A stretch of 64,000 nt of DNA from the IMG/VR virus record IMGVR_UViG_3300042446_001168; one strand, 5' to 3'. Both the position numbers and the translations under genes were made by a program. Shown piece after piece: positions 3,599 through 14,945 of the stretch. This DNA comes from a virus. The notes below the pieces were generated by a model, which saw only the letters and a program-made list of their open reading frames with translations, was not told the origin of the DNA and made no database searches. Numbering within the stretch: position 1 is the stretch's first letter; the number at the start of each line of letters is the position of its first letter.

Positions 3599-4116
3599 TG
3601 ATATATGAATTAGTGAAGCCGGACCATGTGATGTTGAGAACCAAACTGGATAGATTTGACTTCAACAATCCACCAATGAATCCTCATGAGCTAGCTAACA
3701 ACCTCATCGAAACAATGATCCACAACAACGGTATTGGGTTATCTGCCAATCAATGTGGTCTCCCGTACAAAGTATTTGTGTTGTGGTCAAACCCAACAAA
3801 AGTAATGTTTAATCCTACTGTGGCCGATATCTCTACGGAGGAGATTATGTTGGAGGAAGGATGTTTGACGTATCCAAATCTTTTCATAAAGATTAAGAGA
3901 CCGAAGTTAGTCCGTATTAGATACATGGATTCATTTGGAGAAGCTCAGACCGATAAGTTTACTGGGATGACTGCTAGATGCGTACTTCATGAGATGGATC
4001 ATCTGAATGGAGTTAATTTCACACATAAAGCTAGCAAGTTTCATTTTGAGCAAGCCATGAGACAGAGAAATAAACGAGAAAAATCATATAAGGTGCCTAG
4101 CCATGAGCAAAATTAA
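3598..4116 (+). CDS. def: Peptide deformylase
   Basis: GIGLSANQ, EGCLT and HEMDH motifs. Confidence 0.93.
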   Translation: MIYELVKPDHVMLRTKLDRFDFNNPPMNPHELANNLIETMIHNNGIGLSANQCGLPYKVFVLWSNPTKVMFNPTVADISTEEIMLEEGCLTYPNLFIKIKRPKLVRIRYMDSFGEAQTDKFTGMTARCVLHEMDHLNGVNFTHKASKFHFEQAMRQRNKREKSYKVPSHEQN

Positions 4117-4954
4117 AGTAGCAGAATTATTCTATTCTCTTCAGGGTGAAGGGAAATATGTCGGAGTTCCTAGTGTGTTTTTACGAACATTTGGGTGTAA
4201 CTTCACTTGTAGTGGATTTGGAATGCCTAAAGGAGACGTATCTAATGAACGAGATGGGATTGCAGTTAATATTGGCCAGTTTAAATCTTACAACGATCTA
4301 CCACTTGTTCATACCGGTTGCGATTCTTATGCTAGCTGGGATCCTCGGTTCAAACATCTTTCACCGGTTCTTACTACGGATTCGATTGTGGAATCAATTA
4401 AGGAATTACTCCCGAATAAACACTGGAAAGAAGAACACCTAATTATTACTGGTGGTGAGCCATTACTTGGATGGCAGAGATCATTTGCCGATCTACTATC
4501 ACACGAGGGGATGGCTGGCCTCAAGTCTATTACTTTTGAGACCAACGGTACTCAGAAGCTCACAGACGACTTCAAGAAGTTCTTGTTTCAACATGGATCA
4601 AAGAACAAAGGTAATGTTGAGATTGTGTTCTCCGTGAGTGCTAAATTGAGTGCATCAGGAGAAAAATGGGAAGAGGCAATTCTACCAGCAGTTGTAGCTG
4701 ATTATGAACAGTACGGTGAAGTATATCTGAAGTTTGTGGTTGATAAGGATAGTGACATTGAAGAAGTTGATAGAGCGGTGTATGTGTACAGAGATAATGG
4801 GATTCGTGGTAACATATATCTGATGCCTGTTGGAGGAACTGATCAGATATACTTTAGTAACTTCAAAGCTGTTGCAGAAATGGCCATGAAGCGTGGGTGG
4901 AGATATAGTCCAAGATTGCAGGTAGATATTTGGCGTAACGCATGGGGTACTTGA
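4103..4954 (+). CDS. queE: 7-carboxy-7-deazaguanine synthase (radical SAM)
   Basis: ELFYSLQGEG, FLRTFGCNFTC...GCDS, ITGGEPL, FETNGT, RLQVDIW. Confidence 0.92.
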   Translation: MSKIKVAELFYSLQGEGKYVGVPSVFLRTFGCNFTCSGFGMPKGDVSNERDGIAVNIGQFKSYNDLPLVHTGCDSYASWDPRFKHLSPVLTTDSIVESIKELLPNKHWKEEHLIITGGEPLLGWQRSFADLLSHEGMAGLKSITFETNGTQKLTDDFKKFLFQHGSKNKGNVEIVFSVSAKLSASGEKWEEAILPAVVADYEQYGEVYLKFVVDKDSDIEEVDRAVYVYRDNGIRGNIYLMPVGGTDQIYFSNFKAVAEMAMKRGWRYSPRLQVDIWRNAWGT

Positions 4955-4957
4955 TAA

Positions 4958-5431
4958 ATGGACATTGACCAAAATGATTTCAATAAAGCAGTTGATAGCC
5001 TTTGTGTACAAATCAGAGAGAGTCAGGTTAAATTTGACTTCATTGTTGGAATCAGTCGTGGGGGCCTTATTCCTAGTGTTCTTTTGTCTCACCGTCTTCA
5101 GATTCCTCTTAGGACTGTAGAGTGGTCAACAAGGGATTCAGGTCTCAGGAATTGTTCCCCTGATATTGCCTATCAAGCAAGATATAAATCACCAACATAT
5201 GAACGTAAGAACATATTAGTAGTAGATGACATTGTTGATAGTGGTATTACAATCAAAGAGCTACTTGATAGTTGGCAAATGAAGGATAGTGATAACGTCA
5301 AGTTAGCATGTATAGTATTTAACAAGGAACAGCGATTGATAACACCTGATTACTATTATCAAGTGATAGATCGAAGTGAAAATAAACAATGGGTAAATTT
5401 TTGGTGGGAGCAAAATGAATCAACCAGTTAA
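4958..5431 (+). CDS. Type I phosphoribosyltransferase (purine PRTase-like)
   Basis: GISRGG, LVVDDIVDSGIT PRPP-binding loop, WVNFWWE end. Confidence 0.9.
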   Translation: MDIDQNDFNKAVDSLCVQIRESQVKFDFIVGISRGGLIPSVLLSHRLQIPLRTVEWSTRDSGLRNCSPDIAYQARYKSPTYERKNILVVDDIVDSGITIKELLDSWQMKDSDNVKLACIVFNKEQRLITPDYYYQVIDRSENKQWVNFWWEQNESTS

Positions 5432-5915
5432 TTATAAATTCGTATCAACAAAAGAGTATGTGGATGCCTTCCCATGTGCTTACAGACAATTCCGTGCAGA
5501 TTCTCACTGCAACCTAATTCATGGGTACAGCTTCTCCATGAAGTTCTACTTTGGAACCAACGACCTTGACGTTCGTAATTGGGCTGCTGACTATGGTGGA
5601 TTGAAAGAGCTAAAGGAAGTACTACAGGAACAGTTTGACCATACCCTTCTTGTAGCAGAGGATGATCCTGAGCTAGAGACCTATAAACTTCTACAAGAGA
5701 AGAAGATGGCTAAGCTAACCATCCTACCACGACTGGGATGCGAAGGCCTGGCCGATTCGCTTTACAAGTATGTTAATGGAGTTTACATTCCTGACTATTG
5801 GGGTCCTGGTGAGTCGCGTCGTCTTTGGTGCTATCGTGTAGAGGTTCGCGAGACTCAAAGTAATATGGCTTTCCGAGAAGGACATCGTGAGTGGAACGAG
5901 GATCTATTCGAATGA
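5415..5915 (+). CDS. queD: 6-carboxy-5,6,7,8-tetrahydropterin synthase
   Basis: CNLIHGYS (CxxxHGx), FDHTLL, VEVRET motifs. Confidence 0.9.
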   Translation: MNQPVNYKFVSTKEYVDAFPCAYRQFRADSHCNLIHGYSFSMKFYFGTNDLDVRNWAADYGGLKELKEVLQEQFDHTLLVAEDDPELETYKLLQEKKMAKLTILPRLGCEGLADSLYKYVNGVYIPDYWGPGESRRLWCYRVEVRETQSNMAFREGHREWNEDLFE

Positions 5916-7130: not shown

Positions 7131-7208
7131 GGGCCTCTAGCTCATGTTGGTTAGAGCAGCGAACTCATAATTCGTTGGTGCCGTGTTCGACTCACGGGAG
7201 GCCCACCA
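7131..7208 (+). tRNA. tRNA with CAT anticodon, probably Ile2 (lysidine type); Met not excluded
   Basis: Acceptor GGGCCTC/GAGGCCC, anticodon arm GCGAA-CTCATAA-TTCGT, TTCGA T-loop, encoded CCA. Confidence 0.9.
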
Positions 7209-8992: not shown

Positions 8993-9084
8993 GCCAGCGA
9001 GACTTGGTAGTCAGAGAGGTCTTATACACCTTTTAGCGCCAGATTAGCGTTCTTGAGAGGGTTCGATCCCCTCCGCTGGTACCA
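8993..9084 (+). tRNA. Atypical tRNA with TAT (Ile AUA) anticodon, 4-nt D-loop and long variable arm
   Basis: Acceptor GCCAGCG/CGCTGGT, D arm GACT-TGGT-AGTC, anticodon arm GAGGT-CTTATAC-ACCTT, variable arm AGCGC-CAGATTA-GCGTT, T arm GAGGG-TTCGATC-CCCTC, A-CCA end. Confidence 0.8.
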
Positions 9085-9249: not shown

Positions 9250-10038
9250 ATGAAAAAAGTCATTCTCGCTTTGTTATTCGTGTGCAGTAATAGTTTAGCT
9301 ACAACACAATATGTTTACAATGTTTCAAAAGAGCAGGTAATTATTGATTCGGCATCAGAGGCTGTGAGACCAATAGCCAGTGTTACTAAGTTAATGACTG
9401 CTATCATTATCCTTGATAGTAGCTTGTCAATGGATGAGAAGGTCCCATACAAAGGATCTAAGCAGCTCTCTAGGAAGCCCCGCACTCGAGAAGAGTTACT
9501 CTCTCTGATGCTGATTAAAAGCGATAACAACGCGGCTGATGCATTGGCCAGCAGTGTATCTGGGGGACGGGACGTTTTCATTAGTCAAATGAATGAAAAA
9601 GCTCGGTCTCTTGGGATGGTCAATACCACATACGAAGACTCTTCCGGGCTAGGATTTCGTAATCAGAGTACTGCCAGGGATCTTGCACTGCTATTACAGC
9701 ATGCCTATAGCTACGATAAGATACGACAGGTAGCGTCGACTCAACAATACATCGTGATAGAGCCTGCAAAGAAGGTGAAGGTTAAAAGAAGTAGTAAGTT
9801 GAAGAAAAGGAAGACGTTCAGGACGTCAGGCATAATTGTAATCAACAATACCAATTACAATCTACTAGTAGACTACAAAGAGATTGAGATTTCTAAGACC
9901 GGGTTTACTAACCCAGCTGGTAAGTGTCTGGCTATGTTCCTTACTAAGCATGGAGACCACTTTGTAGTTGTGATCCTTGGTGAAAGAAATACTAGCAGCG
10001 TGCAAAAGGTTTCAAGAGGTATTATTGACCGGCTATAA
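9250..10038 (+). CDS. Serine D-alanyl-D-alanine carboxy/endopeptidase (peptidase S11, PBP7/PbpG-like)
   Basis: Signal peptide; SVTK, SDN and KTG active-site motifs. Confidence 0.9.
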   Translation: MKKVILALLFVCSNSLATTQYVYNVSKEQVIIDSASEAVRPIASVTKLMTAIIILDSSLSMDEKVPYKGSKQLSRKPRTREELLSLMLIKSDNNAADALASSVSGGRDVFISQMNEKARSLGMVNTTYEDSSGLGFRNQSTARDLALLLQHAYSYDKIRQVASTQQYIVIEPAKKVKVKRSSKLKKRKTFRTSGIIVINNTNYNLLVDYKEIEISKTGFTNPAGKCLAMFLTKHGDHFVVVILGERNTSSVQKVSRGIIDRL

Positions 10039-10063: not shown

Positions 10064-10139
10064 GCCGAAATAGCACAACTGGTGGTGCAGCGCACTTGTA
10101 ATGCGAAGGTTGAGGGTTCGAGTCCTTTTTTCGGCACCA
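10064..10139 (+). tRNA. tRNA-Thr(TGT)
   Basis: Cloverleaf, loop CTTGTAA, CCA end. Confidence 0.92.
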
Positions 10140-10148
10140 AAATAATGG

Positions 10149-10177
10149 TTGACTTTGTTATTATGTTGCTATATAAT
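10149..10177 (+). promoter_or_regulatory. Sigma70-type early promoter
   Basis: TTGACT-N17-TATAAT. Confidence 0.85.
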
Positions 10178-10203
10178 ATCTTTGTGGACTAGGGGAATAT
10201 TAA

Positions 10204-10563
10204 ATGCGTTTTGAGGGAATGGTGGATAAAGGTTGGGGACACGAGCTGATATGGGCCACCAATAATAAGTATTGCGGGAAGTTTCTGAACTTCAATACAG
10301 GATCTAGATTCTCTATGCATTTCCATAAAGAGAAGGATGAGACCTGGTATGTAATGAGTGGTAGGTTTATTGTAAAGAGTATTAACACAGATGATGCTGG
10401 CCAGTTTAAGAAAGAGTTAGTGGCTGGGGATGTGTGGCACAATCCACCAATGGTACCACATCAGTTGATATGTTTGGAGTCTGGTACAGTTGTAGAGGTA
10501 TCTACTCCGGATAGTGTTGAAGATAATTACAGGATAATACCTGGAGACAGTCAGAAGAAATAA
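10204..10563 (+). CDS. Cupin-fold protein (mannose-6-phosphate/lyxose isomerase-like)
   Basis: KGWGHE, SMHFH..KDETW, PH, EVSTPD...D.YR. Confidence 0.8.
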   Translation: MRFEGMVDKGWGHELIWATNNKYCGKFLNFNTGSRFSMHFHKEKDETWYVMSGRFIVKSINTDDAGQFKKELVAGDVWHNPPMVPHQLICLESGTVVEVSTPDSVEDNYRIIPGDSQKK

Positions 10564-10564
10564 A

Positions 10565-10644
10565 GCCCATGTGGTGGAATGGTAGACACGCTAGTCTTAG
10601 GAACTAGTCTTCGGGTGGGGGTTCGAGTCCCTCCATGGGCACCA
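10565..10644 (+). tRNA. tRNA-Leu(TAG)
   Basis: GCCCATG/CATGGGC acceptor, CTAGT-CTTAGGA-ACTAG anticodon arm, CCA. Confidence 0.92.
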
Positions 10645-10718
10645 GCACTCGCGTTTGTTGACCGCGTATAATAGGATAAGTTGTCAACACCGAATTTAAA
10701 TATTATGACAGGATCATT

Positions 10719-10919
10719 ATGACTATCACATTGAGTAGAACACAGATTGAGAAGCTAATTCAAATATATGAACACTTTAGCGACATTCCATCGTTCACCA
10801 TATCATTAGAAAGTGACTCTGACATGATCAACGTTGCATTTGATATGTCTACCATTCCAGAAAAGCAGAAGACTATTGTAAGGGTTGAAAAGCCTTTCAA
10901 AGCCCAATCATTCAAATAA
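10719..10919 (+). CDS. Hypothetical protein
   Basis: ORF with AGGA RBS. Confidence 0.55.
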   Translation: MTITLSRTQIEKLIQIYEHFSDIPSFTISLESDSDMINVAFDMSTIPEKQKTIVRVEKPFKAQSFK

Positions 10920-10937
10920 CTCACCTAATTATATATT

Positions 10938-11357
10938 ATGAAAACAGGATTCACTTGTTCCACCTTTGACCTATTTCATGCCGGTCACGTGTTAATGCTT
11001 AAAGAGGCCAAGCAACACTGCGATTGGCTCATTGTTGGATTACAAACAGACCCAACAATTGATCGTCCAGATACCAAGAACAAACCAATACAATCTGTGT
11101 ATGAGCGTCAAGTGCAACTACAAGGCTGCAGGTATGTTGACGAGATTATTGTATACGAAACTGAAAAAGATTTGAAGGATATGCTGTTGTCTTTACCTAT
11201 TAACATCCGTATAATTGGGGATGAGTACATGGGCAAGCAATTTACCGGCCATGATTTAGAAATTGAGATGTACTACAACTCTCGTAAGCATAGTTTTTCA
11301 ACTACAGAGTTGAGGCATCGAGTAGTTGACTCTGAACAACGAAAACTCAAATATTAA
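10938..11357 (+). CDS. Cytidylyltransferase (glycerol-3-phosphate cytidylyltransferase, TagD-like)
   Basis: TFDLFHAGH (HxGH), R.HSFSTT. Confidence 0.85.
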   Translation: MKTGFTCSTFDLFHAGHVLMLKEAKQHCDWLIVGLQTDPTIDRPDTKNKPIQSVYERQVQLQGCRYVDEIIVYETEKDLKDMLLSLPINIRIIGDEYMGKQFTGHDLEIEMYYNSRKHSFSTTELRHRVVDSEQRKLKY

Positions 11358-11361
11358 TATT

Positions 11362-11436
11362 CCGGCCATAGTACAACGGATAGTACAGGGGATTTCTACT
11401 CCCTCGATGTGGGTTCGATTCCTGCTGGCCGGACCA
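11362..11436 (+). tRNA. tRNA-Arg(TCT)
   Basis: CCGGCCA/TGGCCGG acceptor, GGGGA-TTTCTAC-TCCCT anticodon arm, CCA. Confidence 0.9.
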
Positions 11437-11444
11437 AGTTCTAC

Positions 11445-11518
11445 GCGGGATTAGTTTAATGGTAAAACTAAAGGTTTCCAACCTTTCGTCATCAGTTCGA
11501 TTCTGATATTCCGCTCCA
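11445..11518 (+). tRNA. tRNA-Gly(TCC)
   Basis: GCGGGAT/ATTCCGC acceptor, loop TTTCCAA, T73 discriminator, CCA. Confidence 0.92.
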
Positions 11519-11677: not shown

Positions 11678-11990
11678 AATTGAGAATAAGACTAGCTGTA
11701 TATCAAAGCAGTATAATTATGTTGACTTTGATCCCTTCAAGAAGCAGCATAGAACAGCCTTTGTAGAGTTTAAACTCTCTGGCAAATGGCCTGCCAATAC
11801 AAGATTCATACTTGATCCAATGTACACCAACGTACCATCAATGATCAACCAGAAGCTTCTTGACTTCTATTTCAATCGGGATCGTGCTATACCCGAAGAC
11901 CTAAAAAAAAAATATCTAACCACAAAAAACATATATCCGATTGGCAGTATGTTGACTGACGAGGAAATGAATGACAAAGCCTATATCTGA
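11664..11990 (+). CDS. Hypothetical protein
   Basis: ORF in operon. Confidence 0.6.
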   Translation: MLQTKIENKTSCISKQYNYVDFDPFKKQHRTAFVEFKLSGKWPANTRFILDPMYTNVPSMINQKLLDFYFNRDRAIPEDLKKKYLTTKNIYPIGSMLTDEEMNDKAYI

Positions 11991-12654
11991 GCAAATTAAG
12001 TACCGGCTATTGAAAGCCAATAAGAGATTCAATGCTAGTGATAATATCTCTGAATACATTGAGGATGGAGAGTTTCCAGAATTGGTTAAAGAAGTGCAGA
12101 CCAAGTTTCAGGGAGTTCTTGAGTCTTTAGTTATTGACACTGATAATGATCCTAACTCAATGGATACGGCAAAGCGTTTAGCTAAAATGTACGTATACGA
12201 GCTCATGGCCGGACGCTATGAGAAGAAGCCTGATTGCACATCGTTCCCTAACGAAGGTGAAGGTCGTTTTGAGGGAATGCTTGTAGTGCGAGCAGAACTT
12301 CGTTCAATGTGTTCACATCACCATCAACCAGTCAAGGGTGTTGCCTATATTGGTATTATTCCAACTGGTCGAGTAATTGGTCTTTCAAAGTATGTTCGTA
12401 TTGCACAGTGGTGTGCACGTCGCGGTCAGTTGCAAGAGGAGTTAGTGAACCAGATTGCTAAAGAGATTATGCAGGCCACTGATACCGAGAATGTTGCAGT
12501 CTATATCGAAGCTACACATGGATGCATGGATAACCGAGGTGTAATGGCTCACTCATCGATGACTCAGACGTCTGCTGTACATGGTCTATTCCATAACAAT
12601 AGCGTCAAGCAAGAGTTCTTTGATAATATTAAACTTCAAGCAATGAAGTGTTGA
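11971..12654 (+). CDS. folE: GTP cyclohydrolase I
   Basis: SMCSHHHQP, GLSK..R, RGQLQE, HGCM..RGV. Confidence 0.95.
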   Translation: MTKPISEQIKYRLLKANKRFNASDNISEYIEDGEFPELVKEVQTKFQGVLESLVIDTDNDPNSMDTAKRLAKMYVYELMAGRYEKKPDCTSFPNEGEGRFEGMLVVRAELRSMCSHHHQPVKGVAYIGIIPTGRVIGLSKYVRIAQWCARRGQLQEELVNQIAKEIMQATDTENVAVYIEATHGCMDNRGVMAHSSMTQTSAVHGLFHNNSVKQEFFDNIKLQAMKC

Positions 12655-13215: not shown

Positions 13216-13680
13216 ATGTTGACAACTCGGATTACTAAAAAATGGACTCCTACTCTCGTAGAGGCATTTGGTCCAGGTGTTGCTAAAGCAAGACAAGCTG
13301 AACTTATGGTTGCAGAAGCTTTTGCTAGTTGGGGGTATGAGGTATTGGACTGCGAGTCTGATATCCAGAGCCAGAAGCATGGAATTGATTTAACTATCAA
13401 ACATCCATCATGGCGCAAAGCATACTCTATAGATGTTAAATCAAATATGAATAAATATGGTACTTTTTTTGTGGAGACGTCACCTGAAGGATGGTTGCGC
13501 AACCCAAGCAAAATAAGCGATCGTATATGTCATGTCTGTGTTGACACAGGATGGATCGTGTGGTATGGTAGAGATGATATGGTTCAGTGGCTGCGTAAGA
13601 ATGGTCAATTGAAAACTGGTCTGTTTGAAGTAACCACTCGACATAAAATTAGTTTTCTCAATAAAAGGAAGATTACATAA
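13216..13680 (+). CDS. PD-(D/E)XK nuclease-like protein
   Basis: AE...GIDL...SIDVKSN...FFVE catalytic-like pattern. Confidence 0.55.
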   Translation: MLTTRITKKWTPTLVEAFGPGVAKARQAELMVAEAFASWGYEVLDCESDIQSQKHGIDLTIKHPSWRKAYSIDVKSNMNKYGTFFVETSPEGWLRNPSKISDRICHVCVDTGWIVWYGRDDMVQWLRKNGQLKTGLFEVTTRHKISFLNKRKIT

Positions 13681-14084
13681 TGATTAAGACCTCTGTTTGG
13701 ATAACTTTTCAAAAAGAGGGTGTTCACAGGTATCCAGCAGCTGCTACTGATCCTAGACTAGCGGCTGTTTCTTTTTTAGCCAATGAGCACCGTCATATAT
13801 TCCACTTCAGAGTGGATCTGCAAGTATTTCATGATGATCGAGAGATTGAATTTATTTTACTAAAGCGAGAGCTTGAAGGACTATATACTCAAGGCACTCT
13901 TCAACTCAATAATATGTCATGTGAGATGATTGCCAAGGAATTACTAGTATACATCAAACAATACCATCCACATCGAGACTGCACTATTGAAGTGAGTGAG
14001 GACAATGAGAATGGCTGCCGTCTAGTGTTTGATCACAACGATACAATCCCATTGACCTCCAACGTACTTACTGACTGGAAATAG
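13680..14084 (+). CDS. QueD paralogue, DpdL-like (putative CDG decarboxylase)
   Basis: T-fold protein with LANEHRHIF (LxxxHRHxF) instead of CxxxHGH; SCEMIA; VSEDNENG. Confidence 0.7.
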   Translation: MIKTSVWITFQKEGVHRYPAAATDPRLAAVSFLANEHRHIFHFRVDLQVFHDDREIEFILLKRELEGLYTQGTLQLNNMSCEMIAKELLVYIKQYHPHRDCTIEVSEDNENGCRLVFDHNDTIPLTSNVLTDWK

Positions 14085-14087
14085 ATT

Positions 14088-14945
14088 ATGGCTGAGTTCT
14101 GTCACATTGCCCCTATTCCTCATCTTGACCTAGTTAAGGGAGCCAGCACTCATTTGGTGCTTGCTCATTTAATTGAGCAGAGTGAGGAGTATTGTGAGTT
14201 TTACAAGAGTGAGAAGGTAGCAGGTAGTACTATCATTCTTGATAACTCCGCCTTTGAGATGTATAAGCAGCACAAGCCAATGTATGAGGTTGGTAAGTTG
14301 ATTACAATGGCTGAGAAGGTGGGAGCTGATTATGTTGTTATGTCCGATTACCCTAATACCTACTCTTCAACAACAATCCGAGCTGCAGAGGAATTGGCGC
14401 CTCAATTGAGAAAGAAGGGATTTGGTACTTTCTTTTGTCCACAGTCTCAGATTGGAGACAAGGAAGATTTGATTGATTCATTCAGATGGGCAGCAGAATC
14501 TGAATTAGTAGATTACATTGGGGTATCAATTCTTGCTATCCCTAACGCATATGGTGTTGAGCGGGGTAATAAACTCCAACGTTTTGTAAGTCGTTATATG
14601 TTCATGCAAGAGCTATACGATGACGGTATTCTGGACTTGATTAAAAGTAATGGTAAGAAGATTCACTTCTTGGGTATGTTGGATGGTCCAGGAGAAATTC
14701 GTCTAATGAACCCATACAAAGAATACATTGACACGTGGGATAGTAGTGCTGCTATCTGGTTAGGGCTGCATGCTAATTGTCACTTTGATAGTTCTCCAAC
14801 TGGACTACTTAATGGTAAGTACGAAGTCGAAGTTGATTTTAATTACAGTAACCCACAAAACAAGTTGACAGCTGTTATTAACAAGAGTATAATCAACAAC
14901 TACATTCATATGTACCTAACACCTGAGGAGCAATACATTGATTGA
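14088..14945 (+). CDS. TGT/DpdA-like deazapurine transglycosylase
   Basis: IILDNSAFE, KIHFLG and DTWDSS resemble TGT-fold motifs; deazaguanine gene context. Confidence 0.65.
   Translation: MAEFCHIAPIPHLDLVKGASTHLVLAHLIEQSEEYCEFYKSEKVAGSTIILDNSAFEMYKQHKPMYEVGKLITMAEKVGADYVVMSDYPNTYSSTTIRAAEELAPQLRKKGFGTFFCPQSQIGDKEDLIDSFRWAAESELVDYIGVSILAIPNAYGVERGNKLQRFVSRYMFMQELYDDGILDLIKSNGKKIHFLGMLDGPGEIRLMNPYKEYIDTWDSSAAIWLGLHANCHFDSSPTGLLNGKYEVEVDFNYSNPQNKLTAVINKSIINNYIHMYLTPEEQYID

Follow-up and report, generated by a model that had tools for sequence, protein, structure and literature searches.

In canonical tRNAs, the connector between the acceptor and D stems comprises two bases (U8 and N9), the D loop has at least 7 nt and the anticodon stem has 5 bp. 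Allo-tRNAs (Mukai et al. 2017) have an 8/4 or 9/3 acceptor/T domain, mostly G73 or U73 and many anticodons, and are known from Acidobacteria, Clostridia and Proteobacteria, where toxin-antitoxin genes are frequent neighbours; they are of the Ser or Ala type or inactive, and their UAU forms are mostly inactive or of the Ser type, often with broken stems (PMC5389517). Nematodes carry nev-tRNA-Ile(UAU) (Hamashima et al. 2012), a eukaryotic, tRNA-Leu-derived RNA with a Leu-type D arm that is charged with Leu only (PMC3333845). One study reports that, in relative terms, UAU tRNAs are charged about 100-fold less well by E. coli-type IleRS than by that of Mycoplasma mobile, that the relevant IleRS tryptophan is conserved in TilS-bearing bacteria, where U34 is a poor determinant, and that an unmodified UAU anticodon reads AUG on E. 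coli ribosomes (PMC3575796). Poor charging by IleRS and misreading of AUG together give a rationale for extra recognition elements in a tRNA with this anticodon. Here we describe a long-armed UAU tRNA from a phage. We found no published description of its family in the part of the literature that was searched, and the available portion of a review of non-canonical tRNAs makes no mention of it (PMC7609411).

Anatomy and conservation of the phage tRNA

The window (the whole stretch of viral DNA analysed, 64,000 nt, from IMG/VR record IMGVR_UViG_3300042446_001168) contains a gene at 8993–9084 (+) that ARAGORN called as tRNA-Ile(tat), with the following parts.

8993–9084, plus strand: whole tRNA gene, long-armed, UAU anticodon; 92 nt with encoded CCA; called by ARAGORN, 110 bits with family model R1
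8993–8999, plus strand: 5' strand of the acceptor stem; 7 bp with 9074–9080, G1.U72 on top; 7 of 7 pairs compensatory in the family
9000, plus strand: single connector base, A8, read from the sequence
9001–9012, plus strand: compact D arm; 4-bp stem (9001–9004 with 9009–9012) and 4-nt loop UGGU
9014–9034, plus strand: anticodon arm; 7-bp stem (9014–9020 with 9028–9034) and 7-nt loop (9021–9027)
9023–9025, plus strand: anticodon UAU, in the loop C32 U33 U34 A35 U36 A37 C38
9035–9051, plus strand: extra (variable-region) hairpin; stem of 5 bp in the window and 4 bp family-wide, 7-nt loop CAGAUUA (9040–9046)
9052–9056, plus strand: 3' linker CUUGA, U-rich, ahead of the T arm, read from the sequence
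9057–9073, plus strand: T arm; 5-bp stem and canonical T loop UUCGAUC
9074–9084, plus strand: 3' strand of the acceptor stem (9074–9080), discriminator A73 (9081) and encoded CCA (9082–9084), read from the sequence

One unpaired A separates the D stem from the anticodon stem, and the variable region comprises 22 nt. The RNA has the general features of a tRNA, namely a 12-bp (7 + 5) acceptor/T domain, the T-loop consensus, G18 and G19, U33, a purine at position 37 and a discriminator followed by CCA; its sequence and the family alignment depart from the canonical plan in the single connector, the 3–5-nt D loop and the 7-bp anticodon stem. The single-sequence MFE fold of the window RNA was the same cloverleaf, except that the T arm was mis-drawn (z = −3.0). 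An 8/4 or 8/5 fold was considered and rejected: the residue 5' of G1 is variable (T 67, A 35, C 5 and G 4 among the matches listed), an eighth acceptor pair cannot form, as A8 would face C or G after the T stem, and all five T-stem pairs form.

The anatomy given in the initial annotation of this gene agrees, with one exception, with our reading of the sequence and with ARAGORN, including the 92-nt cloverleaf, encoded CCA, A8, UGGU D loop and A73. The anticodon stem that it gave as extendable to 6–7 bp has 7 bp, the lowest three of which (G.U, A-U and G.U) vary on one strand only in the family alignment, and its 5-bp variable arm is 5 bp in the window and 4 bp family-wide. The exception lies in the anticodon loop, where the supposed anomaly of a C at position 37 came from misnumbering: that C is residue 38, residue 37 is an ordinary purine (A) and the loop is fully canonical.

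ARAGORN called six tRNAs in the window, and Rfam at curated thresholds recovered five of these, the exception being the UAU tRNA, which failed to reach the gathering threshold of 29 bits for the tRNA model (RF00005). The best permissive Rfam match of this RNA was tRNA-Sec (RF01852, 31.1 bits cf. a threshold of 47), which outcompeted RF00005; with this match at 31 bits, albeit below threshold, the Sec-, Pyl- and allo-like geometry initially proposed was an apt description.

Near-identical RNAs were found in at least 150 phage contigs and in three cultured phages. Two exact-pattern scans of IMG/VR, one with the D arm alone and the other with the extra-hairpin loop plus the T loop, each returned at least about 120 contigs (up to 480 kb among the matches listed) and, when pooled, gave at least 146 full copies, of which 85 were distinct. 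BLAST against cultured phages identified homologues in Sinorhizobium phage Phosso and Synechococcus phages S-SRM01 and S-SKS1. The Phosso record annotates its homologue as tRNA-Ile(tat), and the records of the other two isolates (2 of 3) leave theirs unannotated at these positions.

L002, 1501–1588: unannotated family member of S-SRM01
L293, 1197–1284: unannotated family member of S-SKS1, 96.6 bits with R1

Ordinary tRNAs beside the unannotated member carry annotation, at least in S-SKS1. R1, a covariance model built from the family alignment, was run on the window, 69 loci and S-SKS1. Full-length members scored 94–112 bits, with one per member-holding locus, and everything else scored at most 41 bits, the runners-up being tRNA-Leu(UAA); in the 69 loci, nothing lay between 41 and 94 bits and no paralogue with another anticodon was found. 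With a 14-base pattern, a scan of bacterial and archaeal genomes yielded mostly chance matches, and the only true match among those listed (L292) was a phage-like cluster of 20 tRNAs within a MAG. Since Rfam at curated thresholds misses the family and the S-SRM01 and S-SKS1 records in GenBank do not annotate it, AUA decoders are probably underestimated in surveys of the tRNAs of phages.

RNAalifold returned the full cloverleaf from the 85 distinct homologues. Among these copies, 99.6% of cells were paired and compensatory double changes occurred in 20 of 27 pairs; none of 500 shuffles matched this covariation, and slid registers did not come near it either. Co-varying pairs comprised 7/7 in the acceptor stem, 2/4 in the D stem, the upper 4 of the anticodon stem, 3/4 in the extra hairpin and 4/5 in the T stem. 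Covariation in the D stem (A-U to U-A and C-G to G-C) was found in one clade, which also has G8, by a scan with a pattern that left the D arm free. Of the 85 distinct copies, at least 90% had A as base 8, with G in one clade, and the D loop was 3–5 nt long and always contained GG. UAU, U33 and A37 were invariant in every copy, including copies retrieved by patterns that did not contain the anticodon. Among the matches listed, A73 was present in 146/146 copies and an encoded CCA in 74/146. Members are 87–90 nt long without CCA, cf. about 74 nt for a canonical tRNA. Overall, the RNA is a discrete, strongly conserved phage tRNA family. The judgement in the initial annotation that the gene was intact and not a decayed pseudogene held, given 99.6% pairing and 20/27 compensatory pairs, and the checks that it named gave the ARAGORN call of tRNA-Ile(tat) and at least 146 copies with co-varying helices, so conserved homologues exist.

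The G1-U72 wobble that had also been singled out is real, being present in 138/146 copies among the matches listed, but it is not special to this RNA. In carrier loci, G1.U72 with A73 was present in 68% of Leu-CAA, 67% of Lys-UUU, 62% of Glu-UUC, 39% of Leu-UAA and 38% of Val-UAC tRNAs. We therefore rejected it as an identity mark: a wobble that carrier phages so often have in Leu, Lys, Glu and Val isotypes conveys nothing specific. Examples of G1.U72 with A73 are found at L148 2915–2995 and L159 2281–2354.

Genomic setting and the meaning of AUA

The window is a segment of a T4-like phage, with nearly all ORFs on one strand, a GC content of 41% and PHROGs matches to a family B DNA polymerase, a DnaB-like helicase, an SbcC-like nuclease subunit and ribonucleotide reductase. 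The surroundings of the UAU tRNA are as follows.

4103–4954, 5415–5915 and 11971–12654 (and 13680–14945): QueE-like, QueD-like and GTP cyclohydrolase genes (PHROGs), which flank or interrupt the tRNA cluster
7131–7208, plus strand: CAU-anticodon tRNA of the cluster, either Met or lysidine-type Ile2 (ARAGORN, Rfam)
9250–10038: gene for a secreted-looking peptidase, directly downstream of the UAU tRNA (PHROG 5304; N-terminal signal-like segment, SxxK-type motif)
10064–11518, plus strand: rest of the cluster, Thr(UGU), Leu(UAG), Arg(UCU) and Gly(UCC), all reading A-ending codons (ARAGORN, Rfam)
10204–10563 and 10938–11357: genes between tRNAs, matching a cupin annotated 'cysteine dioxygenase' and a cytidylyltransferase-like family

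The QueE-like, QueD-like and GTP cyclohydrolase genes suggest a putative 7-deazaguanine pathway; the gene at 14088–14945 had no PHROG match. The CAU tRNA of the window had no match in E. coli genomes that would classify it, and its phage look-alikes are labelled tRNA-Met by anticodon alone. The six tRNAs of the window read AUA or AUG (CAU), AUA (UAU), ACA, CUA, AGA and GGA. These A-ending codons are those needed by an AT-rich phage in a GC-richer host, and the window is rich in ACA, CUA, AGA and GGA, matching the tRNAs of the cluster. AUA occurs at 17.6 per 1000 codons in the window and makes up 28% of its Ile codons.

ARAGORN called a family member in 130 of the fetched loci, every one as Ile(tat) and all within tRNA clusters. 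The 46 loci with 14–36 tRNAs usually had two CAU tRNAs, in many cases with one that was initiator-like (1:72 mismatch), and often Ile(GAU) as well. With one of two CAU tRNAs initiator-like in such tRNA-rich loci, the long-armed RNA is usually the sole evident AUA reader. Seven loci (L041, L062, L082, L090, L093, L096 and L111) had a canonical 73–75-nt tRNA-Ile(UAU) alongside the long-armed one, the two sometimes lying just a few bases apart. We found no constant partner gene: the commonest neighbour family was present in 29/146 loci among the matches listed and tracked phage clades, and no tRNA-related Pfam domains were found in the neighbour proteins that were checked.

Two further observations concern the CAU tRNAs of these phages. 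Many cyanophage-type loci (such as L005, L023 and L037) had CCA-less copies of the UAU tRNA followed, 2–4 nt downstream, by the apparent start of a CAU tRNA, as matched by eye; together these would be a conserved UAU + CAU tandem. The initiator-like CAU tRNAs (1:72 mismatch; for example at L043, L049, L118, L163 and L292) had an unusual, compact D region and a longer variable region, and may be a second non-canonical tRNA type of these phages.

The meaning of AUA was examined by codon exchange; in phages adapted to a tRNA that places Leu or Ser at AUA, these sites would be expected to swap with codons for Leu or Ser, and this was not observed. When window ORFs were aligned to their orthologues in other carriers, AUA paired mostly with AUU, AUC and AUA. 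When ORFs lying no more than 5 kb from the tRNA in carrier loci were all compared with one another, 5,463 AUA sites aligned to I in 53%, V in 17% and L in 11% of cases. The corresponding figures for AUU were 57, 18 and 11%, and AUC behaved alike; CUA, UUA and CUU gave L in 64–69%, and Ser codons also differed. AUA thus exchanges like AUU and AUC, both of which are read by the ordinary GAU tRNA, and carries the meaning Ile in carrier phages, a result that is separate from the question of which amino acid the long-armed tRNA carries.

Proposed decoding role, charging and alternative explanations

From sequence comparison, we infer that the RNA is probably expressed as a functional elongator tRNA that translates AUA, is charged with Ile and uses its extra hairpin as a recognition handle. 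Under this proposal, large AT-rich phages, which use much AUA, would meet hosts that read this codon only via a scarce, lysidine-dependent tRNA, and the phage would bring along a decoder of AUA as one of several tRNAs that serve A-ending codons. The presence of a canonical Ile(UAU) tRNA in seven loci and of a possible Ile2-type CAU tRNA in the window suggests that the function may be something other than simple supply. The one-base connector and the tiny, GG-only D loop would shorten the core, giving a compact variant of the L-shape, and the 7-bp anticodon stem may regain the elbow-to-anticodon distance in the fashion of tRNA-Sec. A35, U36, A37 (the t6A site) and A73 would direct IleRS. The nearly invariant hairpin would act as a sequence-specific handle, which may aid a host IleRS that is poor at U34; alternatively, the handle might guide a modification enzyme that stops UAU from reading AUG.

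Nureki et al. (1994) are said to have defined the IleRS identity set as G34 or lysidine-34, A35, U36, A37, A38, A73, C4-G69, U12-A23 and C29-G41. A35, U36, A37 and A73 were invariant in 85/85 distinct copies. Other elements of the set were absent: every copy had U34, and the window RNA has C38, A-U at 4-69, C-G at 12-23 and G-C at 29-41. Most other copies in the family alignment had A38, and 15/85 had C4-G69. Also counted against an Ile decoder is that both known long-armed UAU tRNAs, nev-tRNA and allo-tRNA, are non-Ile acceptors.

The extra hairpin was strikingly uniform. Its loop, CAGAUUA, was the same in all but one of at least about 113 copies from the D-arm-only scan, the pattern of which did not contain the hairpin loop; the loop of S-SKS1 departs at one base, and the C-G pair that closes the loop was invariant or nearly so. 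The motif showed no enrichment or recurrence elsewhere in the window. The YUU of the linker could replace 9032–9034 as the partner of 9014–9016 (GAG), with a compatibility across the family of 99.6% that equals that of the stem extension; this double pairing option may point to a triple interaction or to alternative conformers, or may be coincidental. In shape, the hairpin resembles an anticodon arm, and its loop positions 3–5 read GAU, as does the major Ile anticodon; a coincidence is possible, since some Ile anticodon would be expected there about 1 time in 20, and the loop has neither U33 nor a purine at 37. Closure of a GAU triloop by an A33-U37 pair was considered and is disfavoured, as S-SKS1 has C at that loop position. 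A much more speculative idea, to which we give little credence, is that the hairpin is a second head, read by IleRS or another Ile-specific factor for identity or modification, with the UAU head reading the codon. The GAG strand, by pairing with one U-tract or the other, would then allow stacking of either hairpin beneath the D arm, and, if true, phages would bypass the rejection of U34 by IleRS by splitting the synthetase site from the ribosome site.

The proposal of an Ile-charged AUA decoder has to be weighed against charging that does not depend on the anticodon, by LeuRS (on A73) or SerRS (on the long arm), which would place Leu or Ser at AUA as phage-driven ambiguity or recoding. The combination of a long extra arm, A73 and UAU is the same as in Leu-charged nev-tRNA-Ile(UAU) (PMC3333845), UAU is the commonest allo-tRNA anticodon (PMC5389517) and ordinary IleRS disfavours U34 (PMC3575796). 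In addition, the next-best R1 matches after the family are tRNA-Leu(UAA), and a canonical tRNA-Ile(UAU) is also present in some carrier phages. Nevertheless, we consider such charging unlikely, and the mis-decoding of AUA by a Leu-charged tRNA that was initially envisaged is disfavoured, as AUA at 5,463 sites evolves like AUU and AUC and not in the manner of Leu or Ser codons, the window uses AUA frequently, and the RNA fills the AUA slot in near-complete phage tRNA sets. Given this frequency, a missense adaptor for AUA would be costly to the phage's own proteins, which would be those harmed most. The structure of the RNA also speaks against these synthetases. In E. coli identity studies, bacterial LeuRS uses A14/A15 and D-loop size, and SerRS prefers G73. 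The phage D loop lacks A14/A15 and the loop-size features, the discriminator is A73, and the fixed sequence of the extra-arm loop contrasts with the arms that SerRS reads irrespective of sequence. In the acceptor and T arms, identity to the co-resident tRNA-Leu was barely above that to other isotypes, with no clear kinship.

A role outside translation, as a decoy for nucleases or sensors, as a partner of a protein via the hairpin or as a regulatory RNA, would fit a loop that stays fixed as the stems drift, a pattern suggestive of a partner that binds a specific sequence, and a single connector, very short D loop and 7-bp anticodon stem that could hamper use by the ribosome; most allo-tRNA(UAU) that were tested were likewise inactive in translation (PMC5389517). 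However, selection keeps the anticodon loop, U33, A37, T loop, GG, 12-bp acceptor/T domain, A73 and CCA, the RNA is always found among ordinary tRNAs, where it fills the AUA slot, no conserved partner gene was found nearby and the hairpin motif is not repeated in the window. The decoy or other non-translational role raised in the initial annotation thus found no positive support here, and we regard it as very improbable; we know of no Ile-specific anticodon nuclease. The score below the gathering threshold of the Rfam tRNA model might point to a chance cloverleaf or a decayed pseudogene, an explanation refuted by at least 150 homologues, compensatory changes in every helix and invariant loops, such that its probability is negligible.

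Comparison with known tRNA types

With canonical Ile readers of AUA, namely the lysidine-CAU tRNA-Ile2 and the UAU tRNA-Ile of Mycoplasma mobile and some phages, the family shares the loop Y-U-UAU-A-N, A73, the 7/5 acceptor/T domain, a normal T loop, a location in phage tRNA clusters and, presumably, the function as a reader of AUA. It differs from canonical tRNA-Ile in having one connector base, a D loop of 3–5 nt, a 7-bp anticodon stem and an extra hairpin of 4–5 bp. It resembles allo-tRNAs in its Sec-like compact D arm with a tetraloop, longer anticodon stem and long extra arm, and in that UAU is favoured; unlike them, it is 7/5 with A73, has UAU only and intact stems, and lies in phage tRNA clusters. 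In contrast to nev-tRNA, it has neither a Leu-type D arm nor clear kinship to tRNA-Leu and is found in genomes where AUA behaves as Ile. The 4-nt D loop, extended anticodon stem and long arm recall tRNA-Sec, but the 13-bp (8/5) acceptor/T domain, 6-bp D stem, UCA and G73 of that tRNA are lacking. A single base between the acceptor and D stems is shared with tRNA-Pyl, but not the 3-nt variable loop or CUA, and the GG and T-loop consensus of the phage family are absent in tRNA-Pyl.

The most fitting description of the family is a structurally new variant of elongator tRNA from large phages, 7/5, A73, UAU-only and long-armed with a Sec-like core. With it, the independent cases of a long-armed UAU tRNA number three, and the old question of how AUA is read by UAU where host IleRS and ribosomes are tuned to lysidine becomes testable. 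The reader of the invariant hairpin, be it a synthetase, a modifier or another factor, could serve as an orthogonal handle in tRNA engineering. With conservation that spans phages of cyanobacteria and rhizobia and many uncultured large phages, the family adds a widespread natural architecture to the known non-canonical cloverleaves (Sec, Pyl, allo, nev and mitochondrial).
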